Virus record (IMG/VR): IMGVR_UViG_3300044697_000029 | Location: 1-64,000 of that record | Reading direction: 5' to 3' (one strand) | DNA length: 64,000 nt | Source of the DNA: a virus | Shown here: positions 7,834 to 63,405 of the stretch, one piece after another | Layout of the letters: every line of letters begins with the position of its first letter | Position numbering within the stretch: the stretch's first letter is position 1 | Position numbers and translations under genes: made by a program | The notes under the pieces: model-generated | Database searches by the model: none | Told to the model about the DNA's origin: nothing | Seen by the model: the letters and a program-made list of their open reading frames with translations, nothing else

Positions 7834-7838
7834 CGGCA
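7678..7838. repeat. 26-bp direct repeat (7678-7703, 7813-7838) encoding PMSDHESA
   Basis: cgcagattcgtggtcagacatcggca occurs twice. Confidence 0.9.
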
Positions 7839-8056
7839 GCCTCCATGAATGCCGCTTCGACCGCCAGGAAGACGGCGGTTTCACGGACGGTAAGGTTGCC
7901 GATCGCCACGCCGCTGCGGTCGTTCGTTGCGACGCGGAACTCCTTCATGGCGCAGTATGTGGCACTAAGCACTGCGTCCAACAGCCGCTCATCCCTCGCT
8001 TTGTCCCGCTGTGCGAGGTGCGACAGGCAGTCCGGGAGGGGGTTGCGCTCAGCCAT
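7826..8056 (-). CDS. Hypothetical protein
   Basis: Overlaps neighbours in the operon. Confidence 0.5.
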   Translation of the reverse strand: MAERNPLPDCLSHLAQRDKARDERLLDAVLSATYCAMKEFRVATNDRSGVAIGNLTVRETAVFLAVEAAFMEAADV

Positions 8057-43603: not shown

Positions 43604-43780
43604 GTGACCGAATCCGTCTGTCTTTTCGACTCCCTTCGCGACCTGTTTCATGCGGTGCAGTACGAGCGGTGGTTGGGTCGGGTGTACGGAAAGATCGAGG
43701 AGCATGAGATGACCGTGAAGGCCATGCTGACGGCCTACGCGATCGACCGCGGTCTATCATGGCGCCCGACGAATGCCTGA
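43604..43780 (+). CDS. Hypothetical protein
   Basis: Fills the gap before the portal. Confidence 0.45.
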   Translation: MTESVCLFDSLRDLFHAVQYERWLGRVYGKIEEHEMTVKAMLTAYAIDRGLSWRPTNA

Positions 43781-45614
43781 ATCTGCTGCCCAACGCCGCT
43801 ACGCCCGCGGCAACGGTCTCGATCCGGCACAACCGTTCTATTTCCAGTCATCCCCAACGATGCTGGGGATGCAGCCGGCAAACGACAGCGCGCCGGCGCC
43901 CGTTGCTCCGTCGTGGCTGGGTTGGCCCGACCTCTACCGCCATCTGGAAGCGCGGCTCGCGGCCGAAAAGACGTGGCGGCTGTCATGGTGGCGGCTGTGG
44001 GGAGATATCGCCCGGTTCGAGCTTCCGAGGCGGTACCACGCGTTTTTGACGGAGAACGACTACAACAGGGGCACGCGCCGCGACGGTGCCATCCTCGACA
44101 ACACCGCGACGCAGGATGGTGAGACCTGTGCCGGCGGCATCATGACGGTCTGCACGGACCCCGATCGGGAGTGGATCAAGCTGGGCGCGCCGGCCGGCGT
44201 CGAGGTCGATCGCGACGGGCAGATGTTCTTCGATGACCTGACCGAACGGCTCCGCTTCGTGCAGGATGAGACCAACTTTTACGAGAGCCTGAACCAGTTC
44301 TATGAGGACCTGACGTTCTTCGGAACCGGCGTGGCGATCGACTATGACGATGCCGACAACATCTTCGTCTGCCGGAATCCGTGTGCCGGCGAGTTCTGCC
44401 TCGCGAGCGGTGCCGGCAACGAGGACCAGTCGCTTTTCGTCGAGGAACGCCGGACGGTTGCGCAGATCGTTGAGATGTTCGGGCTGGACAACTGCCCGCT
44501 CGATATTCGCCAGCAGTTCGTCCAGAAAGGTGGCGCGCTGGAACAGGAGCGCATCGTCGGACATGCCATCGAGCCGAATTTCGCGCTGTCGGACGGTAAC
44601 GGTGGGTCCGTTGGCAGGTTGCCGGGCCATTTCACGTGGCGCGAGGTGTACTGGATCGTCGGCAAATCCGACACCGCGCCGCTGAGCATCGCGGGCTTTC
44701 AGGAGAAGCCCTTTGCTGCCTCGCAGTGGCATCGTGTGTCCAACGACCCCTACGGCCACGGGCCGGGATCGACGGTGCTTGGCGACACGATCGAACTGCA
44801 AATCCTCACGGCGCGGCAGGCCGAACTGGTGGAGAAGATCGGTCGGCCCCCGATGACGGCGCCGGTCTCGCTCAAGAACGAACCGCACTCGATCAAGCCC
44901 GACCAGATCACGTATTACGATGCGACCACTTCCGCGCCGCAGTTCAAGCCGATATTCGAGGTCGATGCGCGCGCCTTGGTTGGCATCAACGCCTCGATCG
45001 CCGCCGTGCAGGAGCGCATCCATCGCGGCATGCACGCCGACCTGTTTCGGATGATCCAGGAACTGTCACAACGCCCAGGCCAGAAGACGGCAACCGAGAT
45101 CGACGCGCTTCGGGAAGAACGTCTGATGCAACTCGGGCCGGTGATCGGCCGCGTCTATCGCTACGGCATCCGCCCACGGATCAACCGGCAACTGGCCATC
45201 TTGCGGCGCCGCGGGCTGTGGCCGAAGATTCCGCAATCGATGCGCCGGCTGCCGTTGCAGATCGAGTTCATCTCGATGCTGACCCTGGCGCAGCGGGCCG
45301 GGGCGGTCGGCTCGATCGAACGGACGTTTGCCTTCGCCCAATCGCTGGCGCCCGATCCGCGGTTCGCTGAGAGCGGCGACGTGCTGGATGCCGACGAAGC
45401 CGTGCGAGAAGCGGCATCCTTGCGCGGCGCACCGTCCCGGATTATCAGGGCGGCGGCGGACGTGCGGAGGATCAGGGCGGCACGCCAGCAGGCCGTGTCG
45501 GCGCAGCAGCAGGCACAGACCGCGCAAGCAGCCGTGGCGGGAGCGCAGCAGTTGTCGCAGACCAGTCTCAATCCGGGGAACGCCCTGGGGGCCATGTTGC
45601 AGGGGGCACGGTGA
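43773..45614 (+). CDS. Portal protein (head-tail connector)
   Basis: 613 aa; TNFY..L...Y.DL..FGTG, YGHGPG, TATEI...EE.L.QLGPV, IEFISML. Confidence 0.93.
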   Translation: MPESAAQRRYARGNGLDPAQPFYFQSSPTMLGMQPANDSAPAPVAPSWLGWPDLYRHLEARLAAEKTWRLSWWRLWGDIARFELPRRYHAFLTENDYNRGTRRDGAILDNTATQDGETCAGGIMTVCTDPDREWIKLGAPAGVEVDRDGQMFFDDLTERLRFVQDETNFYESLNQFYEDLTFFGTGVAIDYDDADNIFVCRNPCAGEFCLASGAGNEDQSLFVEERRTVAQIVEMFGLDNCPLDIRQQFVQKGGALEQERIVGHAIEPNFALSDGNGGSVGRLPGHFTWREVYWIVGKSDTAPLSIAGFQEKPFAASQWHRVSNDPYGHGPGSTVLGDTIELQILTARQAELVEKIGRPPMTAPVSLKNEPHSIKPDQITYYDATTSAPQFKPIFEVDARALVGINASIAAVQERIHRGMHADLFRMIQELSQRPGQKTATEIDALREERLMQLGPVIGRVYRYGIRPRINRQLAILRRRGLWPKIPQSMRRLPLQIEFISMLTLAQRAGAVGSIERTFAFAQSLAPDPRFAESGDVLDADEAVREAASLRGAPSRIIRAAADVRRIRAARQQAVSAQQQAQTAQAAVAGAQQLSQTSLNPGNALGAMLQGAR

Positions 45615-45859
45615 TCAAATCCTATCCCGCCCATCCCCAGGTTCTGCAACGCGACGCCGGGTCTGAGGCGATGCTGATGTGGCCCAGGAACGCCGAGATT
45701 GATCTCGCGCACGTGACGGGCGCCTATCCGGTGCCATACGTGCCGCCGATGGTTGATCCGGTGTCTAACGTGGTCGCGGTGCAGCATGGCGGCCAGACGA
45801 CGGTGATCCACGCCGATTTCGACCAGTTCCAGCGGGATTGGGAGGCAAGCCGGCGATGA
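45611..45859 (+). CDS. Hypothetical protein
   Basis: GTGA and ATGA coupling. Confidence 0.55.
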   Translation: MIKSYPAHPQVLQRDAGSEAMLMWPRNAEIDLAHVTGAYPVPYVPPMVDPVSNVVAVQHGGQTTVIHADFDQFQRDWEASRR

Positions 45860-46716
45860 GCCGCGAAAGCAAACAGGACGATCCGTGGGAGCGCCGTGCA
45901 CTCTACGGGTGCGCCGCCGCTCTTGGTGGCAACGTGCCGCAAGCAATCCGGGATTTCGCAGGCCATCTTGACCAGGCCGCTGATGTGTTGGCCGATGCGC
46001 CCTGGATTGAGGGCAATGCTATGAGCGGCCACATCTTCGAACGATATGGGGGAGGCGGCGCCCGCAGTAGGCTCGGGGTGGGAAGGAGGCTCGCGCTCTC
46101 CGAAATACCGGAATGGATCGTTCGCATGAGCGATGACGCTGCGCAATGCAGGATGGCCGAGCTCGGGGCCGACCATGAAGCTCTGGGGCAAACTGTTGCC
46201 ACGGACATTTTCTATGGTAGCCCGCAGGCGGACCCATGCAGTTGCATCGGGCTATCGGCCTTTTGCGAGTCACCCCAAGGAAACGTGGTTGACGGCGGTG
46301 GTGACGGCGGCTCGTCGATCTGGCTGCTCTCATGGCACCAGGAGGAACTTTATATCGCCTATCCAAAAGGCAGTATGGCTGGCCTCATGCGCCACGATCT
46401 CGGTCTTCAAGTGGGAGAGCGGGATGCAACGGGCGCCCGAGAGGTTGTTTACACAGAAGCGTCGGAAGTTTCGTTGGCGATAATTCCTCAGAGGGCACAA
46501 AGCGTAGTGCGTATCGCAAACCTAGCTGGTGTCGTGGGAGCGCGGCTGGATCAGTTGATGAGAGCGGCTCTGGGCATGCTCGGCGATACAAAAGGAAGGC
46601 CGACATTTTACATGAACCGCACGGTAGCGGCGGCCCGTGGCAGTACAGAGCCGCTGGATGACTATCCGGTGCGTATCGCCGACGAACTGCGTTTTGATGA
46701 GGCGAGGGTTGCCTGA
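45856..46716 (+). CDS. Major-capsid-protein paralog 1 (internally deleted)
   Basis: Colinear with 49903-50958: PWIEGN..GH, QTVA..IFYG, SSIWL, YPKGS.AGL, VVRIANL, FYMNRT, DEARV. Confidence 0.85.
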   Translation: MSRESKQDDPWERRALYGCAAALGGNVPQAIRDFAGHLDQAADVLADAPWIEGNAMSGHIFERYGGGGARSRLGVGRRLALSEIPEWIVRMSDDAAQCRMAELGADHEALGQTVATDIFYGSPQADPCSCIGLSAFCESPQGNVVDGGGDGGSSIWLLSWHQEELYIAYPKGSMAGLMRHDLGLQVGERDATGAREVVYTEASEVSLAIIPQRAQSVVRIANLAGVVGARLDQLMRAALGMLGDTKGRPTFYMNRTVAAARGSTEPLDDYPVRIADELRFDEARVA

Positions 46717-47147
46717 TGTCTCGCGAAACCGAGTTCCTCACGCGCCACAAGGAAGACCTGACGCAAGCCGCCGAGATGTGCCGCACACTTCAGCGCCAGG
46801 CCGTCGAGGTCTCGCCGCGGCATCGCACCTACCTGCGGCTTCTGCAGACCTGCAAGCGGCTGGAAGGCACCTGCCGTCAGATGGCACATGAGCGCGGCGA
46901 CGACTTCACGTGGTTGCAGCTTGGGCACCACTATCACGCGGTATCGCGGAAGGTGACGGCGCTGCGGCACGAGGGGAAATGGCTGCTGTTCGGGAAGTTG
47001 GCTGAGGTATTCGAGGCTGGGATGCCGCAGGTCGGGCGGCTGGCCACGACTGCGACGGGGCTGACCAGCATGAGCACTTCGCCGCTGCTGATCCTGCCGC
47101 CCTACCTGCGTGGCGGCAAAATGGATGGACGGATTATCGTGCCATGA
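46716..47147 (+). CDS. Hypothetical helical protein between the capsid paralogs
   Basis: TGATG and ATGA coupling. Confidence 0.7.
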   Translation: MSRETEFLTRHKEDLTQAAEMCRTLQRQAVEVSPRHRTYLRLLQTCKRLEGTCRQMAHERGDDFTWLQLGHHYHAVSRKVTALRHEGKWLLFGKLAEVFEAGMPQVGRLATTATGLTSMSTSPLLILPPYLRGGKMDGRIIVP

Positions 47148-47833
47148 CCGCACGATGGCTGAGTGACCCGGGTCGGCCCACTGAACTGGCGTGGTTCTTT
47201 GACGCGCCGTGGGAAGCGGCCAACCAGCGGCGCTGGCACAAGTACAATGTCCTTGCCACATCGTCGCCTATACGGATGATGTCAGGTGTGCTTGCGCTCA
47301 GCGCACCAGCAAAAGACGTGCTGCGGCAGGTAATCTACGGCAACCCCGTCGCTCAGAGCGTCGCGGGTCAGCCGCTGACCGAGATGATGGGCCTCGCGCC
47401 TATGTTTGCTAGCCGCGATCCGGGCGACGCCGCCAATGCGGTGAATGTCCTGGATGCTGGTGGCACGAGCAACCTATGTTCCGCGTGGTTGATCGGGTGG
47501 GGACCGCGCACGGTATTCATGGTCTCGCCAGATGGGGATCCACCTTCCCTCGAAGGCGAATGCGGCATTGCGGTTGCGGACTGGCGCTATGTGGTGCGAA
47601 TCGCGAACATCGACGCTGTTTCGCCGAACTTCAATGCGCTGGCAATGATGGCGATGGCGAGTATCCGTCTGCCGCGCCTGACCTGCGATGAGAACCTGCG
47701 GCCAATGTTCTATGTCACAAAGGACGTGGAAAATCGGCTGAAGGACGATGTGTCGAAGCACGTTGAGCGGTTCAGTGGCGTCCCTATCCGTGTGATTGAT
47801 GAACTGCGGAGCGACGAGGCGCGCATCGCTTGA
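47144..47833 (+). CDS. Major-capsid-protein paralog 2 (more extensively deleted)
   Basis: IYGN, AANAVNVLDAGG, SAWLIGWGPR, DWRYVVRIANID, RLP, FSGVPIR..DE. Confidence 0.85.
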   Translation: MTARWLSDPGRPTELAWFFDAPWEAANQRRWHKYNVLATSSPIRMMSGVLALSAPAKDVLRQVIYGNPVAQSVAGQPLTEMMGLAPMFASRDPGDAANAVNVLDAGGTSNLCSAWLIGWGPRTVFMVSPDGDPPSLEGECGIAVADWRYVVRIANIDAVSPNFNALAMMAMASIRLPRLTCDENLRPMFYVTKDVENRLKDDVSKHVERFSGVPIRVIDELRSDEARIA

Positions 47834-48189
47834 GTGACTATCCCTACGCCTCCCGCGTCGCGGCTGCTGATGCCGCTATCGAAGACGTCCTCGATCCAGG
47901 TGCGGCTGCCGCTCGCGAGGAACAGAACCGCGAACACGAACGCGCCAGACAGCAACGCCGAGCGTTCCTGATGCAGACCATGCAGCATCCCGAAGGCCGG
48001 AAGTGGCTCAAGGAGATGCTGGACCGGTTCCACACGTTCGAGGCCCGCATGGCATCGGTGAACGGCATGGCGCCCGATCCGATGGGCACAATGCTTCTGG
48101 CCGGCGAGCAACGCTGCGGCTGGTGGATTTGGGAGCAGTTGGACGACGCCGATCCAGTCGTGGCTTCGAGACTGCGGAGGAATGCGTGA
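47830..48189 (+). CDS. Bbp19-like head protein
   Basis: MQHPEGRKWLKEML...AGEQRCG; position between portal and scaffold. Confidence 0.75.
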   Translation: MSDYPYASRVAAADAAIEDVLDPGAAAAREEQNREHERARQQRRAFLMQTMQHPEGRKWLKEMLDRFHTFEARMASVNGMAPDPMGTMLLAGEQRCGWWIWEQLDDADPVVASRLRRNA

Positions 48190-48625
48190 GAACGATCATC
48201 AAGGTGGACGAAGGCTGCCTCAACGGGCTGCTGACGACGCGGTTCATCGTGTTGGATCACGACTGCTGGTCGTTCGGCGAGCGTGTCAGTCAGGTCGATG
48301 CGGCGCTCGCCTCCATTCGGGACAGCGAAGACGCGGAGTGCCTGCGGGTGTTCGGCCAGGAGTTCTGCCCTGCTGTCGTGCCAGATGAATGTGAGACTCT
48401 GGTCGCGGCGAAGATCAGATAGGGCGCGCGGTCCCCGGCAACTCCATCGTAGGGAACGGCACTCCGGCTGGAGTGCAGAAATACCATCCTGCCGCTTCAA
48501 CCGAGTAGCGGAACGCCGCATCCTCGGATTCCCGTTCGCGCCGATCCGCTTCGACCATCGCTTGACCGGTGTAGGTGCGCTCGCTCATGATTTGCTCTCC
48601 CTGCGGCACTAGGGAAGTTCAAGCG

Positions 48626-49036
48626 TCATGCCACGCTCCGCGTTTGACGCGATGCGGGTCGGTAGGTCGTCATCTGTAACCGGCGTCGCTCATGATCGCC
48701 CCCTTCCCTCAGCGGCAACGCGGACCGTTCAGCGGGCGCTACGCCATCCATGATGTTGCGCGGCAGCACAGTCCGCACCGACACGACCGCTCCGTTGCTG
48801 TTTCGGTCGTCTAACGAGATGTGCGGTGCGTAAACCGCCAGCGGGGCGGTCTGACGTTCTGTCGCGACTGCGTTCCGCGGCACGAATTGCATCTCATGGA
48901 ATGCCCCATCGTCACCACGCTCGAAGACGCCTTCGCTTGTGGCGACGAACAGCCGGTCCTTGAACACGACCATTGAGATGATCGGCACTTTGCTCGTCGC
49001 GACCAGTTCCATGTTGCGGGGCGGCTCTGCGTCCAT
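48626..49036 (-). CDS. Hypothetical protein on the opposite strand (moron-like)
   Basis: IISMVVFKDRLFVATSEGVF beta-blade-like segment; AAGGTG RBS. Confidence 0.5.
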   Translation of the reverse strand: MDAEPPRNMELVATSKVPIISMVVFKDRLFVATSEGVFERGDDGAFHEMQFVPRNAVATERQTAPLAVYAPHISLDDRNSNGAVVSVRTVLPRNIMDGVAPAERSALPLREGGDHERRRLQMTTYRPASRQTRSVA

Positions 49037-49055
49037 GTCCACACCTTGAGGTTTC

Positions 49056-49886
49056 ATGTCCGACAGTTCTACCGCAGCAGAAACGCCCGCGCCAGCGTCG
49101 GAACCGGCTCCCGCAGCCGCTGCACCGGCGCCCGAGCCTGTCGCTGCGCCGGCCACCGAGGTAACGCCCGCAGCCACCCCAGAGCCGGTCGCCGAACCGG
49201 CAGCCCCATCCCCCGAGCCGGAGCCGGCCGCAGCCGCAGGAGAGCCTGCGCCCGCCACGGTCCAGGATCCGGCCGCAGCCGAACTGGAGAAGGCGCCGGA
49301 GGCTGCCGAACCGGTCGCAGAGCCGCCGAAGCCGGAACCGCCGACCTACACCGATTTCAAGTTCCCGGACGGTGTGAAGGTCGCCCCCGAAGCTATGACC
49401 GCCGCAACCAAGGTGTTCGGCGAGTTCGGCCTAACCCAGGAGCAGGCGCAAAGGCTGATCGACATTCATGCCGAACAGCAGCAAGCGGCGGTTAAGCAGT
49501 TCACCACTGCGGCCACGGACTACTGGAACGCCGAGTCCAGGAAATGGGTTGCCGAGGTCGAGAAGACATTCGGCAACCAGCTCAACACCAACATAGAGCG
49601 TGCCCGCGCGGTTTGGTCCGACGTGCTGCCCAAGCAAGCCGATCGTGACCGTCTGTTCGGCGCGCTGAACGACACCAAGATCGGCGACCACCCCATGCTG
49701 GCCCGCGCGCTGGCGGAGGTCGGCCGCCGCTTCGAGCAAATCTACCAGTTGACCGGAACCAATAGCTGGGATGCCGCGATGAGACGGCTGCGTGAACCGG
49801 CCGCGCCGCCACCTGCCCAACCTGCCCGTGCGCCTGGTGCCGCCGGGCGACCTGCCGACCGCCGTTACAGCGGCACCCGAGCATAG
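49056..49886 (+). CDS. Capsid scaffolding protein
   Basis: Pro/Ala/Glu N-terminus, YTDFKFPDG, GLTQEQAQRL, IGDHP; directly before the capsid gene. Confidence 0.85.
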   Translation: MSDSSTAAETPAPASEPAPAAAAPAPEPVAAPATEVTPAATPEPVAEPAAPSPEPEPAAAAGEPAPATVQDPAAAELEKAPEAAEPVAEPPKPEPPTYTDFKFPDGVKVAPEAMTAATKVFGEFGLTQEQAQRLIDIHAEQQQAAVKQFTTAATDYWNAESRKWVAEVEKTFGNQLNTNIERARAVWSDVLPKQADRDRLFGALNDTKIGDHPMLARALAEVGRRFEQIYQLTGTNSWDAAMRRLREPAAPPPAQPARAPGAAGRPADRRYSGTRA

Positions 49887-49902
49887 AGAAGGAGCTTGAA
49901 CG

Positions 49903-50958
49903 ATGGCCACCGGCCAATACCTGACGCTTGTCGATCTCGCGCGGCGCACCGACCCTGACGGTGAGGCGGCGGACATTGCCGAACTGCTTTCCCAGGCCAA
50001 CGAGATTTACGATGATCTCGTCTGGAAAGAAGGCAACACCAACACCGGGCACGTCTATACGATGCGGACCTCCATCCCGAAGGGCTGGTGGCGCTTCATC
50101 GGCCAGGGTGTGCCGGGCAGCAAGTCCACCACGGCGCAGGGTCGCACCAACTGCGGCGACCTGGAAATGAACTCGACCATTGATCTCAAGCTGGTCGAAA
50201 TGGCGCCGGATCAAAACCAGTTCCGCTACGATGAAGACAACGCCATCCTGGAAGGCGCCAGCCAGACTGTGGCTGGCCAGTTCTTCTATGGTAACGGCCA
50301 GACCAACCCAGCATCGTTCACCGGCCTCTCGAACTACTACAACACGCTGGAAACCTCGACGGCCGCGAACGCAGTCAACGTGTTCGACGGCGGCGGACGG
50401 TCCACTAACAATTCGTCGATCTGGCTGATTGGTTGGTCGCCGCGCTCGATCTATGGCGTCTTCCCGCGCGGCATGAAAGCCGGCGTTGAGCTGCAGCCGC
50501 TCGATGAAGTTGTGCTGGCCTACGACAGCCTGGGCAATCCGTACCGCGCCAAGATCACATGGTTCCGGCAGATGGCTGGGCTGTGCGTCGAAGACTGGCG
50601 CTGGGGCGTCCGCATCGCCAACCTGGACGTGACCAACGCAGCGGCTGGCGGTCTGGCTGGCCCGAATGCGTATGACATCTTCGTCGGGCTGTCCAAGGCG
50701 GTGAAGCGCTTGCCGAAGATGGCGCGCGGGCAAAGCGGCATCACCGAGACCGACGCTCGCAATGAGCGCGGGATGACGGTACGGCCGGCCATCTACTTCA
50801 ACCGCACTGTCGGCGGCTTTGCTGATGTGCAAGCGATACGTGACCGCAACGTGTTGCTCGGCCCGAGGGACTACGCTGGCGAGCCGGTCACGTCGTTCCG
50901 CGGCATTCCGATGCGCACGCAAGACCAGATTCTGTCCACCGAAACGCAGGTCACCTGA
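49903..50958 (+). CDS. Major capsid protein (BPP-1-like HK97 fold)
   Basis: AAGGAG RBS; TL.DLA...IAELLSQ.NEI..D...EGN..TGH, DWRW.VRIANLD, FRGIP; strong codon bias. Confidence 0.95.
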   Translation: MATGQYLTLVDLARRTDPDGEAADIAELLSQANEIYDDLVWKEGNTNTGHVYTMRTSIPKGWWRFIGQGVPGSKSTTAQGRTNCGDLEMNSTIDLKLVEMAPDQNQFRYDEDNAILEGASQTVAGQFFYGNGQTNPASFTGLSNYYNTLETSTAANAVNVFDGGGRSTNNSSIWLIGWSPRSIYGVFPRGMKAGVELQPLDEVVLAYDSLGNPYRAKITWFRQMAGLCVEDWRWGVRIANLDVTNAAAGGLAGPNAYDIFVGLSKAVKRLPKMARGQSGITETDARNERGMTVRPAIYFNRTVGGFADVQAIRDRNVLLGPRDYAGEPVTSFRGIPMRTQDQILSTETQVT

Positions 50959-51097
50959 TTCCGACAACGACTGCTCGGCTCATCCCGTCCACGAAAAGAA
51001 GGTGTGGCCGAAGTCCCGTTGGATCGAGCCCCTAACCCCTGCGCCCATAACAACCGGGTGCATATCGCTTTTCTTCCCGACCTGAAAGGGTAATGCC

Positions 51098-51631
51098 GTG
51101 GCGATCAATGACGCACAGCTCATCTTTGACAGCAACGTCTCCCTCGCCATCGCGGCGCCGGGGCAGCCGTCCTCGGAGACCATCGACCTGATGGGAGTCG
51201 GGGTCGGGCAGGCGCCCCCGAACTACTTTGGCGTGCAGGATGCGGTGTTCGGGGAAGACCCCGGCATCGGCGACGGGGCAAGCCCGCCGGTTCTGCAAGT
51301 CATCGTCGGCACGGCGTTCGTTGCCGTGGCAGGCGCCACGCTCCGGGTGCAGTTCCAGGAATCGGTGGACAGCGGCGCCCCTGGGTACACGCCTGCCGCC
51401 TGGAAGACCGTGCTGCAGACCGATGATCTGCCGGCGTCGGTTCTGACGGCGGGCGCCAAGATCGCCGAGATGGCCATCCCGCCGCGGTATCCCGGCGCTG
51501 CGTTCCCCCGCTATCTGCGGCTGAACTACCTTTTGAATGTCGGTGGTTCGAGCTTCAGCGCGGGCACGATCGCGATCGCGAACATCGTCACGGGCCGCGA
51601 CGACACCCCTGCGTATCCCGCCGGTTACTGA
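51098..51631 (+). CDS. Bbp16-like capsid cement protein
   Basis: DAQLIF, SETIDL, RYLRLNY, GTI; follows the capsid gene. Confidence 0.85.
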   Translation: MAINDAQLIFDSNVSLAIAAPGQPSSETIDLMGVGVGQAPPNYFGVQDAVFGEDPGIGDGASPPVLQVIVGTAFVAVAGATLRVQFQESVDSGAPGYTPAAWKTVLQTDDLPASVLTAGAKIAEMAIPPRYPGAAFPRYLRLNYLLNVGGSSFSAGTIAIANIVTGRDDTPAYPAGY

Positions 51632-51777
51632 TCCCGCTTACGGGTGGGAGACACCTGAGAGCCGCACGCAGGCGGCTTCGAGTCCGGGCCTCGCTATCCG
51701 TCGCTGCCCGTAGGGCTTGGAGGCGGCGGTGTGCGGAAACCCAGTCTCCCGGCAACCGTACGCGGGAAAGGCCCGGA
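51632..51777 (+). ncRNA. Unidentified highly structured intergenic RNA candidate
   Basis: Nested stems plus a 9-bp crossing pairing (51683-51691 with 51769-51777). Confidence 0.5.
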
Positions 51778-51804
51778 ACTGCGCAATATCACAAGGATAA
51801 CGTA

Positions 51805-52776
51805 ATGGCACGTAACCCACGCCTCACGCTGAGCGGTCCGGCCGGCAGCGAGCAGGACAATGATGGTTGGACTCCGAGCGACGAAGAGCTTGGCGTCGGC
51901 GAAGAGACCGAAGCAGAGCGTAAGGCGGAAGAGGCTGCGCGCATCACAGCGGCTATGGCTGATCCAGTCATCGCCACGGCCATTGATCAGTTGGTGCAAC
52001 AACGCGTCACCGAACTCGCAGCCTCACCCCAGACGGCGCCGACCGGCGTTGATTTCATCGCTGCCATACGCGTGCTGGCGCAGGAAATGGCCACTGCCAT
52101 CAATCGCAGTACCGCGGCGACGGTGGAGCAAATCCCCGGCCACGTGAAGCCGATCCCGGCCGAAGAGGTCGAGAAGCGCGCGGCGGCGTGGGTCGAATTG
52201 CAGAGCCAGTTGATCGAGGTGTCACGACGCTACGCGGCGGCGATCGAGCGGAAAAACCAATACGAGGCCGAGCGGGAAACCCCGATCTACTGGCTGGGCG
52301 AGGATTTCTATGGTCCGGGTGAAGTCGGCAACGAGGTGTATGTGCGGGGCGAAACCATTCGCTGGTTTGGCGTTCCTGGCATCTACATGGAGCCGCGCAA
52401 CGATATCGCCAACCGGCTTTGCGAGTTGGCCTGGACCTATCTCGGCAACGAAGGCGCCCCGACGCCAGAGCAACTGGCGGACAAGGCACAACAGATGATG
52501 AAGCCGAGCGCACCAGGCTCGCCGCTGCCGGAACTGGCGTCGCTCTTGTCTGCGCGCGGCCAGCGGCGCCCGATGGCGTCCCGTGTTTCGGAGATGGGCA
52601 TCGCCGAACGCCAACCGGATGGGATTGTGGGTACGGTGGTGAAGGTGACCCGTGGCGGCTTCGGCCACGGCATCGTCACGGACGGTCCAGGGCTGGCGCA
52701 GCACAGCATCGGGCCACGTACAGGACCGCATCCGGTTCGCGGGGCGGCGCTTGCTGACGCTGGCGCGGCGCTCTGA
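51805..52776 (+). CDS. Hypothetical virion-module protein
   Basis: AAGGA RBS; long ORF in the late operon. Confidence 0.75.
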   Translation: MARNPRLTLSGPAGSEQDNDGWTPSDEELGVGEETEAERKAEEAARITAAMADPVIATAIDQLVQQRVTELAASPQTAPTGVDFIAAIRVLAQEMATAINRSTAATVEQIPGHVKPIPAEEVEKRAAAWVELQSQLIEVSRRYAAAIERKNQYEAERETPIYWLGEDFYGPGEVGNEVYVRGETIRWFGVPGIYMEPRNDIANRLCELAWTYLGNEGAPTPEQLADKAQQMMKPSAPGSPLPELASLLSARGQRRPMASRVSEMGIAERQPDGIVGTVVKVTRGGFGHGIVTDGPGLAQHSIGPRTGPHPVRGAALADAGAAL

Positions 52777-52779
52777 CGC

Positions 52780-53214
52780 ATGGGCGTTCCAGTCGCCAAC
52801 ATCCAGACGCCGGCCGCGAACGATCTCGCAAACGCCGTTGTCCAATCAGGGCTGAATGGCGCCAATCCAGCGTTTGCTGGAACAGGTGTATCCTCAGTCT
52901 TCTCCGCGTGGGGATCATTCAACGCCCTGCTGTGGGCGAGCGGCGGCCCGAACGGCAACTGGAACGCGACGATCCAGCTTGAACGGTCGTTTGACGGCGG
53001 CACGACGTGGCTGGTGTGTGGCGTCGGAGGAGCTGGCCAGCAGGCGATCTACCAAAGTTCCGGCACCGGCCAGGACATCTCGTTCGTCGTGAGTGAGCCG
53101 GAATCCGGCGTTTTGTATCGCTGGCATTGCACCGCCTACTCGTCCGGCACGATCAACTATCGCTTCTCAACCACTAGCCCGGCGCCGTTGGCGTGGGGCA
53201 TCGCTCCCCGATGA
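52780..53214 (+). CDS. Putative capsid decoration / spike-base protein
   Basis: Beta-rich; ATIQLERSFDGGTTW. Confidence 0.65.
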   Translation: MGVPVANIQTPAANDLANAVVQSGLNGANPAFAGTGVSSVFSAWGSFNALLWASGGPNGNWNATIQLERSFDGGTTWLVCGVGGAGQQAIYQSSGTGQDISFVVSEPESGVLYRWHCTAYSSGTINYRFSTTSPAPLAWGIAPR

Positions 53215-53224
53215 GGCACAGCAC

Positions 53225-54652
53225 ATGAAGTTCCGCACCAAACTGCTCGGCGCTATTGGGCTGCTCGCTGTCATTGGCGTTGCCGGCGCGCACAGCCAAG
53301 GACTCCAGTACTACACCACTCTAAGCGGCAGCGAAGGCATCGCCGATCAGCTCAATCCGACCGGCGCCAGCTTCACCTCGGGTCTGGTGCATGCAACGTC
53401 GCAGGGCGTCAACGCTCAGACGGGGACCAGCTACACGGTCCTCGGCACGACTGGCATTCCCCAATCTGGGGCCGCGCCGACCGGCGACATGGGCAAACTG
53501 GTCACGTTCAGCAACACAGGCGCAGTGGCGGTCTCGCTGCCACAGGCTGGTACGGCTGGATTTGAGGCGGGGAAATGGCTTGACGCTGAGAATCTGAACA
53601 GCGGCGCCGTCACGATCACGCCGACGACTTCGACCATCAACGGCGCTTCCACGCTGGTTCTCGATCAGAACAGGGGCGTCCGCATCTATTCGGACGGCAC
53701 GAACTGGCAGATCATGGCTGGTGGTGGCGGGCTGCTCGGCACGCCGCTCACGGTGCCTGAAGGAGGTACCGGCGCGGCGACGTTCACCGCACATGGTGTC
53801 CTGATCGGAGAAGGCGCTACCCCGATTGTGGCAGCGAGCGTTGGCGCAACTGGCACCATACTGGCCGGCACGTCGGGCGCCGATCCGGCATTCACGGCGA
53901 CCCCATCCGGCCTGACCTCGATCGAAGCGACCACGCTCAATGCCGGCCTCGCCACCGGCACTGCCGGCACAGTCGCGGTGTTTCCCGGCACGACGACGAC
54001 CGGTAAGACGACTTTCACTGCGACGGCCAACAGCGGCAACACAACCACCAACATCAACACCGCCGCCCAGGCTGGCGCGCGCACCTACACCGTGCCGGAT
54101 CAGGGCGGCAACGCCACCTTCCAGATGACGGGCGGCACCGTCAGTTCAACGACCGGCATGACGGTGACTCCGCTGCCGCTGGTCAACATGAAGACCGTCG
54201 CCGGCCTTCAGATGACCGGCTCGGCGTCAAGCACGAACTGGGGCCTCGTCTATACTCCCGCCACCGGGAACTACCTGACCGGCACAGCGACCTCATCCGG
54301 CTCGACCTCCAACGTTGCTTCCTACGACATCGTGTTGCCGGCGAACTATATCGCCGGAACCAACATAACGCTGAAGGTTGCCTGCTATTACACGAACTCG
54401 TCCTCGACGGCCTCGGTCCATACAATGGCTGCGGCGGCCTATCTCAACGATCCGGTTCTCGGCACGCAGGGATCGACGCTCATCGCTACATCGGCACAGA
54501 CCTGTCCGATCACGACCGCAACCGCGCAGACCTTCACGATCACTGGCACGTCGCTGGTCCCGGGATCCTACCTGACGCTCACCTTCTCGGCCGCGGTGAC
54601 GAACGGCGGCGGCGCATCAACCGAGTTCCTGACTGCGGCGAACATCAACTGA
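53225..54652 (+). CDS. Thr/Gly-rich fibre-like protein with Sec signal peptide
   Basis: MKFRTKLLGAIGLLAVIGVAGAHS-Q; NAQTGTSYT...SDGTNW; LTVPEGGTG. Confidence 0.8.
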   Translation: MKFRTKLLGAIGLLAVIGVAGAHSQGLQYYTTLSGSEGIADQLNPTGASFTSGLVHATSQGVNAQTGTSYTVLGTTGIPQSGAAPTGDMGKLVTFSNTGAVAVSLPQAGTAGFEAGKWLDAENLNSGAVTITPTTSTINGASTLVLDQNRGVRIYSDGTNWQIMAGGGGLLGTPLTVPEGGTGAATFTAHGVLIGEGATPIVAASVGATGTILAGTSGADPAFTATPSGLTSIEATTLNAGLATGTAGTVAVFPGTTTTGKTTFTATANSGNTTTNINTAAQAGARTYTVPDQGGNATFQMTGGTVSSTTGMTVTPLPLVNMKTVAGLQMTGSASSTNWGLVYTPATGNYLTGTATSSGSTSNVASYDIVLPANYIAGTNITLKVACYYTNSSSTASVHTMAAAAYLNDPVLGTQGSTLIATSAQTCPITTATAQTFTITGTSLVPGSYLTLTFSAAVTNGGGASTEFLTAANIN

Positions 54653-54675
54653 GCCATCACGGAGAACCCCATCCC

Positions 54676-55953
54676 ATGAAGAACCTCTCGCTCGGCGCGG
54701 CTTGGCTGATCCTGGCCGGGGGCGTTGCCTTCGGGCAACTCCCGACGCCTTCTCAGGTGCAGAATATCGGGCCGGCTGACCTGTTCCAGGACATTCCGAA
54801 CGGCGTCCCGCAGCCGGCCAGCCAGTACGCCAACGCGCTTCTGCTCGGCAACTACGCCGCGACGCAGCCGGGCAACAATGATGAGAACGACGTGGTCGGT
54901 GGCGACTTCGGACAGAACTTGTTCCAGGACGGAACGTCAGTCGGCACGATCACGACGACGGCCACCTATGTGGCTGATCAGTTTTTCGCATTCTCCGGCA
55001 CCAGCACGACGATCGGCGGCGCGCAGGAAACCGGCGCAGCCGATATCCCACCCGGCTATACAGCATCCCTGCGGATCACTCGTACCGGCTCCGGTGTCAT
55101 TCAGGCCTGTGTCGGCACGATCATTCCGTCGGCCAACGTTACCCGCTACCAAGGTCAGACGCTGGAGGTGGACGCCCACGCCCTCGCTGGCGCCGGGTTT
55201 TCCGCGGCATCGTCCAATCTGACGTTTGTCCAGGTGCAGGGCACTGGCACAAACGACAGCGCGGCGAACTTCGCCAAGACGGTCAACGGCGCGCTCAGCG
55301 GCACAGCGTGGGCCGGCGCGGTGGTCAATTCTGTCAACGTGCCGATCAGCACAAGCTTTGGCCGCTACAGCGTTGCCTTCCCGGTGGCGTCAACCACAAC
55401 CGAGATGGGCGCGGCCTGGTGTTGGACGCCGGTCGGCGCTTCCCCGAGCAACGATTATTTCGAGTTCACTGGCGCGCAGATGACGCCGAACTCGGCCTTG
55501 GCCACGGTCGCAGGCACAACGGGTGGTGCACTCTCACCCAATGACCGCCGCGCAAAATCCTTTTTGCGGCGTCCGATCGCGGTAGAAACCGCGCTGGAGT
55601 TGTCATTTTACTGGCGTCAGAACGAGCCTGCATCCGGCGCTGGTGTTGCAGGCGTTTACGGCACCTGCCAAGGCACCTCGACCAACACGGTGGCGAATTG
55701 CTTCATGCAGTTCCCTGTGGCCATGTTCAAAGTGCCGACGCTTTCCTACACCGCCGGCACAATCGCGATGACCGCGACCTCGACTGCGGCAGCGGAAGCA
55801 GTGAGCGGCCTTGTCATCCCGACCAACGGCGCGACGCTTTATGGTGCAAGCCTCACTGCCACATCGTCATCGGTCGCAGAAGGCGGGTTTGGATACCTGG
55901 AGTCGGGCAACTCGACCGGCGGCGGCAAGATCGCGTTCTCGGCGCGGTTCTGA
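54676..55953 (+). CDS. Fibre/carbohydrate-binding-like protein with Sec signal peptide
   Basis: GGAG RBS; MKNLSLGAAWLILAGGVAFG-Q; GGDF.QN, YVADQF, FPVAMFKVPT. Confidence 0.8.
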   Translation: MKNLSLGAAWLILAGGVAFGQLPTPSQVQNIGPADLFQDIPNGVPQPASQYANALLLGNYAATQPGNNDENDVVGGDFGQNLFQDGTSVGTITTTATYVADQFFAFSGTSTTIGGAQETGAADIPPGYTASLRITRTGSGVIQACVGTIIPSANVTRYQGQTLEVDAHALAGAGFSAASSNLTFVQVQGTGTNDSAANFAKTVNGALSGTAWAGAVVNSVNVPISTSFGRYSVAFPVASTTTEMGAAWCWTPVGASPSNDYFEFTGAQMTPNSALATVAGTTGGALSPNDRRAKSFLRRPIAVETALELSFYWRQNEPASGAGVAGVYGTCQGTSTNTVANCFMQFPVAMFKVPTLSYTAGTIAMTATSTAAAEAVSGLVIPTNGATLYGASLTATSSSVAEGGFGYLESGNSTGGGKIAFSARF

Positions 55954-56102
55954 TGGACCACGTTCCGGTCGGCGCTCTCCCCGAGGCAAGGAGCGCCGAC
56001 ACACCACCCGTCATGGCGGCCGACGACGTGAAGACGATCAAGCGCCGGATGGACGAAATCCGCGCTGAGGAAGAGGCGTGGCGCGCAAAGCCCGCAAGCT
56101 GA
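55953..56102 (+). CDS. Small hypothetical protein
   Basis: TGATG coupling. Confidence 0.45.
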   Translation: MDHVPVGALPEARSADTPPVMAADDVKTIKRRMDEIRAEEEAWRAKPAS

Positions 56103-56301
56103 CGGCCGCACGGCGCCCGACGTTCTGCGGAACGTGGGAGTGCGAGTGCGCGGTATGCGTCGAACACCAGCAGTTGCGCGTGACCGCGCAATTCAATCCG
56201 GCGATGCCTCTGCGCCTGAGCGCGATGACGTTTCTCGGCGCGATGGACCGCATCCACGAAGGAGCCTACGGCGGCGTTGCGATCGAGCAGTTGTTCGACT
56301 G

Positions 56302-56649
56302 ATGCGCCCCATTCCCACTTCGGTGCGCGTTGGCTACCGGACGTACACGATCGAGGATTGGCCGACCAAGCACGCCACTTCGGCCAACCGCTACGGCGAG
56401 GTTGCACACGGACCACGGGTCATTCGTGTCGATACAACACACGGCGCCTTGCAGGCCGCAGAAACTCTTCTGCATGAAATCATGCACTGCATCTGCGTTA
56501 TGTGGTGTCGTGACGATGATGCGGCCGAGGAGAAAACGGTAAGCATCATGTCAACTGGGCTGGCCACTGTGTGGCATGATAACCCAGACGTGATGGCATG
56601 GATCACTGAGGGCATTGCGGAGGGTCGCGCAAATGCCTGCATTTCTTGA
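56302..56649 (+). CDS. Phage HEXXH metallopeptidase-like protein
   Basis: ETLLHEIMH...EE.TV..M.TGL..V..DNP. Confidence 0.75.
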   Translation: MRPIPTSVRVGYRTYTIEDWPTKHATSANRYGEVAHGPRVIRVDTTHGALQAAETLLHEIMHCICVMWCRDDDAAEEKTVSIMSTGLATVWHDNPDVMAWITEGIAEGRANACIS

Positions 56650-56845
56650 AAATAAACTGGAGCGTGAGGCTGCGGCGAAGGGTCTCAAGGGCAAAGCGGC
56701 GGCGCGGTACACGTTCGGCACGCTCAATAACATTGGCGCAATGAAGGGGTCTGCCGAGACCGCCAAGGGCGCCGAGATGCAGCGCAAGCACGATGAGAAA
56801 GTCGAGAGTGCCGCAGACCGCCGGTATCGTCGGCGGAAGACATGA
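56633..56845 (+). CDS. Small basic protein with C-terminal SAADRRY
   Basis: GGAGG RBS; Lys/Arg-rich. Confidence 0.75.
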   Translation: MPAFLENKLEREAAAKGLKGKAAARYTFGTLNNIGAMKGSAETAKGAEMQRKHDEKVESAADRRYRRRKT

Positions 56846-56963
56846 TGGCGCTCCGGGTCTGCCCTTAATGTGGAGTTCCCACTTGGGATAACCGGCCCGC
56901 CGCCGCAGCAGAGAGAATACGATGCCATCCCTGACAATTCAAGACGCAGCACGGAGGCCAACG

Positions 56964-57209
56964 ATGGCGCGGGCGCACAGGTATGTTCCCAAGAAGGATT
57001 TCCATCCAGGGGGGCAGAAGGGAAAGCTCCACCGCGAGCTTGGTGTTCCAGTCGATCAGCCGATTGGCGCCGCACGCATTGAGGCGGCGACGCATTCCAA
57101 GAACCCCGAAATTCGCCGTGACGCGATCCGCGCCCAGACGATGGCAGGATGGCATCACGGCAGCAGCAAGCCCCGAGCCGCCGATCGTCGCTACGCCGGC
57201 CACAAGTGA
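56964..57209 (+). CDS. Small basic protein (GKLHRELGVP) with C-terminal AADRRY
   Basis: GGAGG RBS before ATG 56964. Confidence 0.75.
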   Translation: MARAHRYVPKKDFHPGGQKGKLHRELGVPVDQPIGAARIEAATHSKNPEIRRDAIRAQTMAGWHHGSSKPRAADRRYAGHK

Positions 57210-57221
57210 AGGATAGAACCG

Positions 57222-57815
57222 ATGCCCGATGGAATGATGAGCGCGGCCCAGCGGCGTTATGCCAAGGAAAGGCCCGGCGAGAAGCGTGAGGAAAAGCCGG
57301 GCCAGGAAGGCGGTCGCGAGAAGCCGACCGAACCGCGCCGGGAAGAGCGCCGCGAGGAACGCCGGGGCGAGGATCGCCATGAGCGTCGCGAGGCCCGCGG
57401 TCGCGGTCGCGAGTCCGAAGGCATGAAGGCGATGCTGGAACGGCACAACGACGAGCACGCCGAACGCGAGAAGAGGCAGGAAGGCGAGCGCCGCGACATG
57501 CACATGCGGCATCGCGAAGCCCACCGCGACATGGCGAAGCGCCACACCGAAGAACGGATGGGCATCAGGTCGCACGCCGAGATGATGGCTGTTCATCGCC
57601 GGCACGAACACGAGAAACGCGCCCTCCATCATACCCATCACGAAGAAATGGGGCTGCTCCATCATCGGCATGAAAACGAGACCGCAATGATGCACGCCAG
57701 ACACGAAGCGGAGATGGCTGGCGCCCCGGATGCTGCGGCTGCGGTCGAAGGCGCGACGCCGGCCGGTCCTGGTGGCGCAGCGGCTCCCGAGGGTCCGCAG
57801 GGCGCCGGGGTATAG
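57222..57815 (+). CDS. His/Glu/Arg/Met-rich helical protein with N-terminal SAAQRRY
   Basis: AAGGA RBS; 11-residue HxxHExE repeats. Confidence 0.75.
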   Translation: MPDGMMSAAQRRYAKERPGEKREEKPGQEGGREKPTEPRREERREERRGEDRHERREARGRGRESEGMKAMLERHNDEHAEREKRQEGERRDMHMRHREAHRDMAKRHTEERMGIRSHAEMMAVHRRHEHEKRALHHTHHEEMGLLHHRHENETAMMHARHEAEMAGAPDAAAAVEGATPAGPGGAAAPEGPQGAGV

Positions 57816-57819
57816 GGCC

Positions 57820-58347
57820 GTGGCGCAATTCCGGGAGTTCCGCAGTCTCGCCCTCTCGGACGATGAACTGCATGACATGGCGCAGGCCCGCGCCGGCATC
57901 ACGACTGACGAAGACTTGCCGGAATACCCGCCCGGTCTTCGTTTTACGATCCGCGAGCAGTCGTTCGAGGATTTCGGGATCGACGGCGCTCGGCCTGGCG
58001 CAACCGTGGAGTTCGCCGCCTTCGCCCGTGTAAGTAGTGTCAGCCTCCGCACGGACGGCTGCCGCGTCGAGCTTGAGCTGATGATGGTTTCGCTCGATGA
58101 CGGAGAGTTCGTGGAGTTGCCGGACCAGGATCGGCCGACAATCTGCCTTGATGAGAATGACCACGAGCGGTTGGACCTGGAGGAAGGATCTGCCGAGCGC
58201 GGGCACATCCTGCACCTGATGGGCGCAGCGGAAGTGGTCTCGGTGGACGACACCTCTTATGGCGGCAAGTCGCTGGTGCTTCAGATCACAGACGGGATGG
58301 TGGTTGAAGACGAAGACGAGGAGGCGCATGACCAGTCCTCGCAGTAG
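57820..58347 (+). CDS. Capsid-staple-like protein with an internally duplicated domain
   Basis: YPPGLRFTI...A.V.SVS...LEL followed by a similar TICLD...AEVVSV...LQIT. Confidence 0.6.
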   Translation: MAQFREFRSLALSDDELHDMAQARAGITTDEDLPEYPPGLRFTIREQSFEDFGIDGARPGATVEFAAFARVSSVSLRTDGCRVELELMMVSLDDGEFVELPDQDRPTICLDENDHERLDLEEGSAERGHILHLMGAAEVVSVDDTSYGGKSLVLQITDGMVVEDEDEEAHDQSSQ

Positions 58348-58358
58348 AGGACGAAACG

Positions 58359-59126
58359 ATGAAGACTTGCAAGAGTTGCGGTCAGACGAAAGCGCCAGAT
58401 GAGTTCCTTCCAGAGCCTCGTGTGCGCGACGGCTTGACGGCGAGATGTCGCACTTGCCTGTTGGAGTATGGCCGACAGTGGGCAGTGGCGAATGCCGGAA
58501 GCGTCAAACGGTCCAGGGAGGCGTACAAGGAACGGAATGCTGACCGGCATCGAGCAAACCGCGCTGCCGCGAAAGAGCGCAACACGGAGGCTAGACGCCT
58601 CCGAGCCGCCGAGGCTCGCGTTGCCAGAGGGCGGGCGCTTCTTGACCGAGACGCAGAGTTGCGTAAGCAGATCGACGGGGTCAATGTGCGTCTCTGCTCA
58701 AAGTGCCGGCGCTACCAACCATACTCCGCCTTCTCGCCAGCCATCGGGAGGGGTGACGGCCTACAGCCCTCCTGCAAAGCATGCGGCGCTATGGCTGCCA
58801 GAAAAAGCCGCGCAGCGGCGACGTACGAGCAGCGCGAAGCGAAGCGCCGCTATATGTTGCCATACGGGCTAAAGCGCCTCTATGGAATTTTGCTTGAGGA
58901 CTACCAGCGAATGAGGGCCGTGCAGGAAGAACGTTGTGGGGTTTGCCATGATCCACTACCGACCGGCCGAAGGTGCCATGTTGACCATGACCATCGAACT
59001 GGCATCGTTCGTGGGCTGCTCTGTGGGCGATGCAATAATGGGTTGGGCCAATTTCGTGATGACCCAGCGACGCTTCGCGCGGCTGCTGCATACTTAGAAA
59101 ACTCGCGAGTGAGGGAAGCTGCATAG
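58359..59126 (+). CDS. Free-standing endonuclease VII-type HNH homing endonuclease
   Basis: Two N-terminal CxxC fingers; CGVC, HVDHDH, VRGLLCGRCN.GLG. Confidence 0.9.
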   Translation: MKTCKSCGQTKAPDEFLPEPRVRDGLTARCRTCLLEYGRQWAVANAGSVKRSREAYKERNADRHRANRAAAKERNTEARRLRAAEARVARGRALLDRDAELRKQIDGVNVRLCSKCRRYQPYSAFSPAIGRGDGLQPSCKACGAMAARKSRAAATYEQREAKRRYMLPYGLKRLYGILLEDYQRMRAVQEERCGVCHDPLPTGRRCHVDHDHRTGIVRGLLCGRCNNGLGQFRDDPATLRAAAAYLENSRVREAA

Positions 59127-61653: not shown

Positions 61654-62225
61654 TGATGACGGCACTCGATATCGTAAATGCCGCCATCCAGTACATCGGC
61701 GACGACCAGCCTCCGGTCACAGGTTCGTACCCGACCTTCGATGACAGTGCGGCCGGGATCGCGGCTGCTGCACTCTACGGCTCCTGCGTCTCGACGGTGG
61801 CCCGGCAGTTCGGATGGGATTTCGGGCGCAACCAGGTCGCGCTGGCGACATCTGGGAATGCGGCGCCGCTAGGATGGGCCTACGAGTATCTCTACCCATC
61901 CCTCGCCGTTGAGGTGCAGCAGATCGTTCCGCCTGCCATCGCTGATCCGAACAATCCGCTGCCGCAGAACTGGTCTGTTGGCAGCGCTCTTGTTTCTGGG
62001 GTGCCCACCAAGGTGATCTGGTCGAATGAGCAGGCGGCTTTGGCGGTGTTCACCAATCCGCAGTTGAGCAACCCGACCGTGTGGGACCCGTTGTTTCGCG
62101 AGGCGGTGGTGCGGCTGCTGGGGTCCGAGATGGCGATTGCGGTTGCCGGCAAGCCGGATACGAGCCGCGACCTGCTTGAAAGCGCCAGCGGCTTCGGGAA
62201 TGCCGGGATGACGAGGCCGAACTAG
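61653..62225 (+). CDS. Tail adaptor / tubular protein A-like, paralog 1
   Basis: DIVNAAI..IG, WDFGR, WAYEYLYP, WDPLFREAV. Confidence 0.85.
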   Translation: MMTALDIVNAAIQYIGDDQPPVTGSYPTFDDSAAGIAAAALYGSCVSTVARQFGWDFGRNQVALATSGNAAPLGWAYEYLYPSLAVEVQQIVPPAIADPNNPLPQNWSVGSALVSGVPTKVIWSNEQAALAVFTNPQLSNPTVWDPLFREAVVRLLGSEMAIAVAGKPDTSRDLLESASGFGNAGMTRPN

Positions 62226-62772: not shown

Positions 62773-63405
62773 ATGGTCGCATCTGTCCAGTCTCCGGCCG
62801 ATATTGTCAACCTCGCGCTATCCCGTGCCGGCCGCACGGAGCGCGTCGGCAATCTCTACGACGGCAGCGAGTTCGCCAAACGCGCGCTCGACACGTACGG
62901 CCAGACCCGCGACGCGCTGCTCCGCAACGCAGACTGGGGCTTTCCGCGCCGCGATACTGCGCTGACGCTGCTGAAGTCCGCGCCGGCAGGCGGCTACGTG
63001 CCAGGCATTTCGACGTGGAATCCAGCGCTCAACCCGCCGCGGCCGTACTCGTACGAATACGCCTACCCGACTGACTGCATGCTGCTGCGCGCGATCCGGC
63101 CACCGTCGATCTGGCAGCCTGAGTTCACGCCGCTGCCGCAGGTGTTCGAGATCGCCAACGACGCGGTACCGGTGAACAACCAAGGGGGCGCCCCGGGGCG
63201 TGTGATCCTGTGCTACCTCGGCGACGCAGTGGCTACCTACTGCGGGCAAGTCACAGACATGACGCAGTGGGATATCGGGTTCGTTGAGGCGATGGCAAAC
63301 GAAATGGCGCGGGCATTGAGCATGGGGAAAGTGGCGCCGCAACAGCAGGCCAACCCGTTCCCGGGTGCGATACAGCCGGTGCATACGCCGGTTTTGCAGG
63401 GATAA
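62773..63405 (+). CDS. Tail adaptor / tubular protein A-like, paralog 2
   Basis: DIVNLALSRAG, RDALLR..DWGF, YEYAYPTDC, WDIGFVEAM. Confidence 0.85.
   Translation: MVASVQSPADIVNLALSRAGRTERVGNLYDGSEFAKRALDTYGQTRDALLRNADWGFPRRDTALTLLKSAPAGGYVPGISTWNPALNPPRPYSYEYAYPTDCMLLRAIRPPSIWQPEFTPLPQVFEIANDAVPVNNQGGAPGRVILCYLGDAVATYCGQVTDMTQWDIGFVEAMANEMARALSMGKVAPQQQANPFPGAIQPVHTPVLQG

Follow-up and report, generated by a model that had tools for sequence, protein, structure and literature searches.

The scaffolding protein of phage 80alpha ends in a helix and a five-residue hook (RIIK), which make up its last 16 residues and insert in a cleft of the capsid protein (PMC5644958). The SaPI1 protein CpmB bears the same hook as the 80alpha scaffold and competes for the same site (PMC5644958). 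Terminal capsid-targeting peptides are also known for the internal proteins of phage T4 and, as an N-terminal signal, for DarB of phage P1 (PMC9024508). Here we describe a comparable element in the virus record IMGVR_UViG_3300044697_000029 of IMG/VR. The analysed stretch (positions 1 to 64,000, hereafter the window) opens a viral contig of 84,249 bp, and its late operon encodes the same short peptide, A-D/Q-R-R-Y (A[DQ]RRY), near one end of five proteins: the portal protein, the scaffolding protein, a His-rich protein and two that are small and basic. The occurrence of these five tags is real and far beyond chance. Since A[DQ]RRY is the local form of a motif that ends the scaffolds of the whole family, its most likely role is that of a common address tag in the assembling head.

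As in 80alpha and CpmB, the scaffold carries a very short motif at its far C-terminal end, and this motif recurs on a second, otherwise different protein. Both 80alpha and CpmB use one site on an HK97-fold capsid protein; the binding has been solved there, whereas here it is proposed from sequence. The hook itself is a Tyr hook rather than RIIK, with no sequence similarity, and it stands on N- as well as C-termini, unlike the hook of 80alpha. The second bearer in that system is a parasite-island protein that alters capsid size, whereas here the bearers are the phage's own portal, small basic and Gp10-like proteins. The peptides of T4 and P1 likewise are short and terminal, direct small proteins, many of them basic, to the interior of the prohead and can be transferred to foreign proteins. 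However, their signals are N-terminal, while the present tag is the scaffold's own tail and is borne by the portal too. The T4 internal proteins are similarly basic to the two small proteins of the window, and the prohead protease removes the T4 targeting signal. The scan of late proteins in the window turned up no protease family; these proteins include one HExxH protein (56134-56649) of unknown function.

In P22, the scaffold is also an otherwise flexible, helical podovirus protein that binds the coat by its C-terminal end, as the present scaffold would. However, the P22 element is a folded helix-turn-helix domain of ~30 residues, compared with a hook of 5-7 residues here. It has been engineered to load cargo, and to our knowledge it does not recur on other natural proteins of P22. 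Encapsulin cargo likewise bears a short terminal peptide on a flexible linker, by which it is docked within an HK97-fold shell. Portal, scaffold and DNA are all absent from encapsulins, whereas the window encodes a complete tailed-phage head module, and there is no similarity between the motifs. An encapsulin-type system is a shell without portal, terminase or tail, and its cargo consists of enzymes that bear a loading peptide at the C-terminus; the window has portal and tail genes, and the content of the 84-kb genome is of phage type. The principle of a capsid-targeting peptide is already known, and so is the mimicry of a scaffold tail by another protein. Our literature search returned no description of the Tyr-hook motif, and in the searched literature the family-wide pairing of scaffold and Gp10-like protein, and the spread of the motif to the portal and other small proteins, also appear to be undescribed.

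On the forward strand of the window, the portal gene (43773..45614; 613 amino acids, aa) encodes SAAQRRYA at 43782-43805, with the tag AQRRY as residues 6-10 (43788-43802), and the scaffolding protein gene (49056..49886; 276 aa) encodes RPADRRYS at 49848-49871, with ADRRY (49854-49868) five residues before the stop. Three further tagged genes on this strand are likewise located in the structural operon. Small basic protein 1 (56633..56845; 70 aa, isoelectric point (pI) 10.2) has SAADRRYR at 56807-56830, with ADRRY (56813-56827) five residues before the stop; small basic protein 2 (56964..57209; 81 aa, pI 11.0) has RAADRRYA at 57174-57197, with ADRRY (57180-57194) four residues before the stop; and the His- and charge-rich protein (57222..57815; 197 aa) has SAAQRRYA at 57240-57263, with AQRRY at residues 9-13 (57246-57260). 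These peptides had been listed in the original prediction, and all five translate as given there. Its view that they are conserved as protein also held: the copies differ in codons and thus are not a DNA repeat, and the motif is kept in relatives. As far as is detectable from sequence, the tagged proteins are unrelated to one another.

Counted in six frames, A[DQ]RRY occurred exactly five times, both in the window and in the whole 84,249-bp genome, and it is absent from the rest of the proteome. First-order Markov simulations matched for dinucleotide frequency gave 0.21 expected occurrences per genome, with a maximum of 1 in 100 simulations, and residue shuffling of the late proteins gave 0.006. 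The analytic expectation in the late proteins was 0.008, which corresponds to a Poisson P(>=5) of ~4e-13 for a motif that was chosen post hoc and that the related locus L005 repeats independently at the same five positions. All five tags lie 4-12 residues from a protein terminus; the probability that all five fall within 14 residues of a terminus was ~9e-5. The termini are credible, because GGAGG-type ribosome sites precede the ATGs of the two small basic protein genes (GGAGGG at 56633 and GGAGG at 56964), GAAGGA lies upstream of the 57222 start, and the portal start is supported by L005 and L014, in which the stop of the upstream gene is found directly before the Met and one codon before it, respectively.

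A portal-based scan of viral contigs yielded 24 loci, among which L005 (portal 72% identical) was the only close relative with sufficient flanking DNA. Its tags had the form AAD[RK]RY or ATKRY: the portal carried ATKRY at the N-terminus and the scaffold AADRRY at the C-terminus, a 59-aa protein ended in AADKRY, a 106-aa protein ended in AADRRY, and the His-rich protein started with AADKRY. Outside the tag, the 59-aa and 106-aa proteins showed no convincing similarity to the two small proteins of the window, which indicated that the tag rides on proteins without detectable mutual relation. The His-rich proteins of L005 and the window are homologous, and the N-terminal tag is kept in the homologs of L005 (MAEKESAADKRY...) and L008 (MAGEDRY...). 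The scaffolds of close relatives ended in PADRRYNGART, PAQRRYARGK and AADRRYGRR. In the more distant L008 (portal 41% identical), a looser motif, x-R-Y, was present on the scaffold, which ends GLARYSGNR before the stop, and on the termini of four small proteins. They include a 73-aa protein with AVERYGKK at the N-terminal and MAGRYGG at the C-terminal end, a 60-aa protein ending in MKDRYGKKD, and a Gp10-like protein, confirmed by Pfam, ending in MKSRYTTDSDKY. Small basic proteins 1 and 2 belonged to no Pfam or PHROG family; the small proteins matched almost nothing in isolated phages, and protein 1 had no match among phage records. A suspected resemblance of these proteins to known small-protein families was not borne out and is not claimed.

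The tag of the window scaffold is the conserved C-terminal element of this protein, as the original prediction had held. Its Tyr271 is kept in at least 90% of 21 homologs, and ~80 further scaffolds carry Tyr preceded by a hydrophobic residue or Arg. The tail x-x-[hydrophobic or R]-Y-[G/P] ends nearly all of the ~100 scaffolds of the epsilon15/BPP-1 family examined, with the Tyr typically 3-12 residues from the stop. Homologs from the protein search ended in RPADRRY..., AAQLLYP..., AEIFYPKG..., SAVLYDHP... and similar sequences. Three capsid-protein scans added 83 loci, in which the gene 5' of the capsid gene nearly always ended in the tail motif (for example, SLEEVFYGKQN, AERLYGG or KRRYPKS). 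The same was seen in isolated phages, namely epsilon15 gp6 (SAFYPKK), BPP-1 Bbp18 (ARRLYAASNMNP), Ab31 (AERMYPNYPA), Vibrio phage 1.021.A (VSLLYPNDKTA), Cobetia phage Carin1 (AEIMYPDLK) and Xanthomonas phage Sopo (NRMYPDM). A[DQ]RRY is therefore the variant of this family-wide tail that is peculiar to one clade, in which Arg precedes the Tyr. The breadth of the motif, and its being mostly hydrophobic-Tyr rather than Arg-Tyr, had been overlooked at first. Since Arg is replaced by Leu, Phe or Met before the Tyr, a simple DNA-binding role is ruled out.

The scaffold core was only 25-35% identical across the family. In an AlphaFold2 model based on 21 homologs, residues 1-100 were disordered and rich in Pro and Ala, and a helical core was predicted at 111-246 with a predicted local distance difference test (pLDDT) score above 90. 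At the C-terminal end, a disordered, Pro-rich linker was followed by a five-residue helix (266-270) and then Tyr271. Neither the scaffold profile nor the model matched any solved structure in the PDB or any protease fold, although such an absence does not exclude a fold shared with the 80alpha or P22 scaffold. The scaffold gene of Limnohabitans phage DC33 (L030, PQ492659.1) is unannotated and spans the start of the circular record; the taxonomy line of this phage reads Inoviridae, yet it encodes a head module of the epsilon15/BPP-1 type.

The commonest second bearer in the family is the Gp10-like protein, which is untagged in this phage. A hidden Markov model built from the related loci retrieved 22 unique Gp10-like proteins, 20 of which ended in the scaffold motif, the two exceptions being those of the window and L005. 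Epsilon15 gp10 ends in KDAFYPDGEDD and shares AFYP with the scaffold tail SAFYPKK, and BPP-1 Bbp20 ends in AAQRLYGASSMSA, where AQRLYGAS corresponds to ARRLYAAS in the scaffold tail ARRLYAASNMNP. The homologs from Vibrio, Xanthomonas, Limnohabitans and Manatee-Spring end in LYG, MYA or LLYG. The window, like epsilon15 with gp10 (PF21628), encodes a probable member of this family (57820..58347, forward strand; 175 aa from a GTG, acidic), and its copy differs in being untagged and, apparently, duplicated: it seems to have two Gp10 domains and looks like a tandem duplication of that domain. This protein scored 22.3 bits against PF21628, below the cut-off of 27, and 3.4e-29 against the model built from related loci; the family alignment matches 3J40_N at 4.7e-22. 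Its AlphaFold2 model had a pLDDT of 71. The fold was also considered as a guide to function, and this was abandoned because the matches to small beta-barrels were too weak (Z <5, Foldseek E >0.01).

Tails of Gp10-like proteins were compared with scaffold tails by scoring six residues around the aromatic residue, with the aromatic itself excluded. The mean score was 9.2 against the scaffold tail of the same genome and 4.0 against those of other genomes (permutation p 5e-5), and the own scaffold ranked first in 9 of 24 genomes. Control segments of the same proteins were not significant (p 0.24-0.69), some of them being weak controls with few aromatic residues. Some pairs of Gp10-like protein and scaffold share 6-9 residues, such as SFADKLY/SFADKFY, SAEEVIYG/TAEEIMYG and EKLYGG/ERLYGG. 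Co-variation of the tags, a check that had been proposed with the original prediction for the scaffold, portal and cargo motifs, thus was found for scaffold and Gp10-like tails within genomes.

The Gp10-like protein of L032 (MW202640.1; 12097-12465) has two tandem tags, ATALYGAG and, at the very end, SNALYGGG, and its 140-aa neighbour (11657-12079) starts with MAAPGNKGTLLYGN. In epsilon15 (L025), gp8 is encoded at 6971-7363 and gp10 at 7705-8040, and the description of PF21628 continues to read 'Major coat protein-like'. Virion proteomics of epsilon15 putatively identified gp10 (PMC9207676). Its position on the outer surface in the deposited structure 3J40 was later judged to be probably wrong; the 130-aa homolog of Bbp16, and not the 111-aa gp10, fits the outer staple density (PMC9207676). 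We hypothesize that the scaffold-like tail offers gp10 a location inside the head.

The portal tag of the window is situated on an N-terminal extension of ~55 residues that is absent from portals of the epsilon15 type. Six close relatives (72-81% identity) carry A-x-[RK]-R-Y at portal residues 5-10, in the variants AAERRY, AAARRY, ARKRY, ATKRY and AAGRRY. Outside the clade of the window, a hydrophobic residue followed by Tyr was seen near the N-terminus in ~18 of 42 other portals of the family; this is close to the chance rate of ~0.3, and therefore a portal tag is not claimed for them.

A short, terminal, tethered, conserved and co-varying motif on proteins with no detectable relation to one another resembles a linear motif with one common receptor. 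With slightly better than even confidence, we propose that the tag is a portable linear motif for one site in the procapsid, probably on the capsid protein, and that it recruits the portal and the small basic proteins beside the scaffold. The tag would be a short, flexibly tethered linear motif, the local Arg-Tyr form of the x-x-(hydrophobic/Arg)-Tyr-(Gly/Pro) hook, and every bearer would dock at one common site in the procapsid, most probably the inner face of the major capsid protein. The hook of the scaffold would drive shell assembly, and other proteins carrying a copy would co-assemble in the same way. In most relatives this would be the Gp10-like protein; in this phage it would be the portal, by its N-terminal tether of ~55 residues, the two small basic proteins and the His-rich protein. 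The arm of the portal could tether the dodecamer to neighbouring capsid subunits. The small proteins are inferred to lie inside the head. The idea of a shared address tag, as originally put forward, agreed with every sequence-level test that had been proposed with it; the receptor, the encapsidation of the bearers and the dependence of the portal on its tag we infer.

Several observations weigh against this proposal. Position 86 of the capsid protein (Cys-Gly-x-Leu-Glu) was considered as a specificity residue and rejected: in a first comparison it was Asp or Glu in the Arg-Tyr clades, hydrophobic in 9 of 10 other genomes and Thr in the tenth, and the link broke when 80 more loci were added, in which L080 and L114 pair an Arg-Arg-Tyr scaffold with Met at position 86 and L034 pairs Glu with Leu-Tyr. 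The Gp10-like protein of the window clade (57820-58347 in the window; 20132-20644 in L005) lacks a C-terminal Tyr tag, and no tag was found on the large ejection-type proteins checked downstream or on the portals of epsilon15, BPP-1 and Ab31, the latter indicating that a tagged portal is particular to one clade. Since scaffolds normally exit the head, proteins bound at the same site might do likewise. Furthermore, the similarity of the tags within one genome could also stem from gene conversion, and a receptor on the scaffold core or on the portal would account for the data nearly as well.

The tag may instead bind the helical core of the scaffold, in which case the tails would link scaffolds into a lattice on which the portal and the small proteins ride; we consider this unlikely. 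All the sequence evidence fits it equally well, because that evidence reveals only a shared partner, and no residue of the capsid protein was found to track the tag. The targeting sequence of T4 acts through the scaffolding core, to which the internal proteins are targeted. That T4 and P1 use terminal capsid-targeting sequences is consistent with such a mechanism (PMC9024508). However, structural or genetic data implicate the C-terminal end of the 80alpha and P22 scaffolds in contact with the capsid protein (PMC5644958), and a tail that bound the scaffold itself would require a conserved pocket in the core, which has just the low identity given above. Quite improbable, in our judgement, is binding to the portal or its vertex, where the scaffold and small proteins would dock to nucleate assembly or form an inner core, the portal's own copy being regulatory or linking subunits. 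A protein core does form on the portal in podoviruses, and P22 and phi29 require contact between scaffold and portal for the portal to be incorporated; the presence of the small tagged genes in the structural operon also suits this explanation. Nevertheless, a tag on the portal itself is odd for a portal ligand, 12 portal subunits cannot serve the ~400 scaffold tails of a head, and the scaffold motif is kept in phages whose portals show no matching feature.

The motif is very unlikely to be a processing or recognition site for a protease, another enzyme or a chaperone, or an ejection or export signal. The label 'protease' is attached to the scaffold homologs in phrog_458, which the window scaffold matches, and in many GenBank records. 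A 171-aa protein with HEIMH, an HExxH motif, is encoded just upstream of the tagged small genes (phrog_1233) and would be a candidate enzyme; its gene is not at the corresponding place in L005 or L008. The scaffold is predicted to be all-helical, without a protease fold, and a cut 4-12 residues from an end would leave the protein nearly whole. In BPP-1, the head proteins (capsid and cement) are not cleaved (PMC3863775). From the last point and the lack of a protease fold in the model, the label looks like an inherited annotation. Recent copying of the ends by recombination or gene conversion, without common function, would explain why tags are more alike within one genome than between genomes, but it is hardly credible, as the codons differ among copies, the motif persists at 41% portal identity and throughout the scaffold family, and the terminal position is kept at both N- and C-ends.

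A broader form of the proposal that the tag recruits proteins to one procapsid site can be put forward tentatively, and we rate it as possible rather than probable. In this form, a large podovirus family, comprising epsilon15, BPP-1 and hundreds of metagenomic relatives, would use one Tyr hook as a general procapsid address, so that the last 6-8 residues of the scaffold, placed at either end, would load any protein. In the clade of the window, twelve hooks on flexible arms would tether the portal to the shell, which would bypass scaffold-mediated recruitment and absorb the 12-to-5 symmetry mismatch, and the small basic cargo would pass into the host together with the DNA.

The window has a G+C content of 62.5%, and its late operon represents a head module of the epsilon15/BPP-1 type, based on three family matches, to the portal, capsid and cement proteins. 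The closest isolated phages (Ab31, epsilon15 and others) have portals of 31-33% identity. The portal matched PF12236 at 6.6e-87 (T7-type portal) and phrog_332. Directly 3' of the scaffold gene, on the same strand, is the gene of the major capsid protein (49903..50958; 351 aa; PF20911 GP7 at 9.7e-95); farther 3' is that of the cement protein, a Bbp16 homolog (51098..51631; PF21190, 28.2 bits with a cut-off of 27.1), which does not contain A[DQ]RRY. The C-termini of cement proteins also show x-Tyr-Pro/Ala, with PAYPAGY in the window, VAYPDSPRIA in BPP-1 (L028, bbp16) and ...Y[AP][DK]x[IY]TIS in many metagenomic relatives. Between the genes of portal and scaffold, at 45838-46716 and 47144-47833, the major capsid protein has two partial paralogs, with partial PF20911 matches at 2.7e-32 and 3.5e-26, respectively. 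An endonuclease VII gene with extra Cys-rich N-terminal repeats (58359-59126; PF02945, 5.4e-23) lies within the structural operon. Paralogs of the tail tubular A/adaptor protein are found in tandem, at 61653-62225 and 62773-63405 in the window and at 63409-64329 in the genome; the first two match phrog_394, and the third is known only as an open reading frame with a similar N-terminus.

Outside T4 and P22, little is understood of how a procapsid takes in the right number of portals and minor internal proteins. For a large phage family, the tag provides a simple rule, readable from sequence, that says which proteins are expected in the head, and this rule makes sharp, testable predictions. A natural loading tag of 6-8 residues would help to pack proteins into phage-derived shells. 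Within the family, the rule also suggests a location for epsilon15 gp10, now that its published position has been withdrawn.

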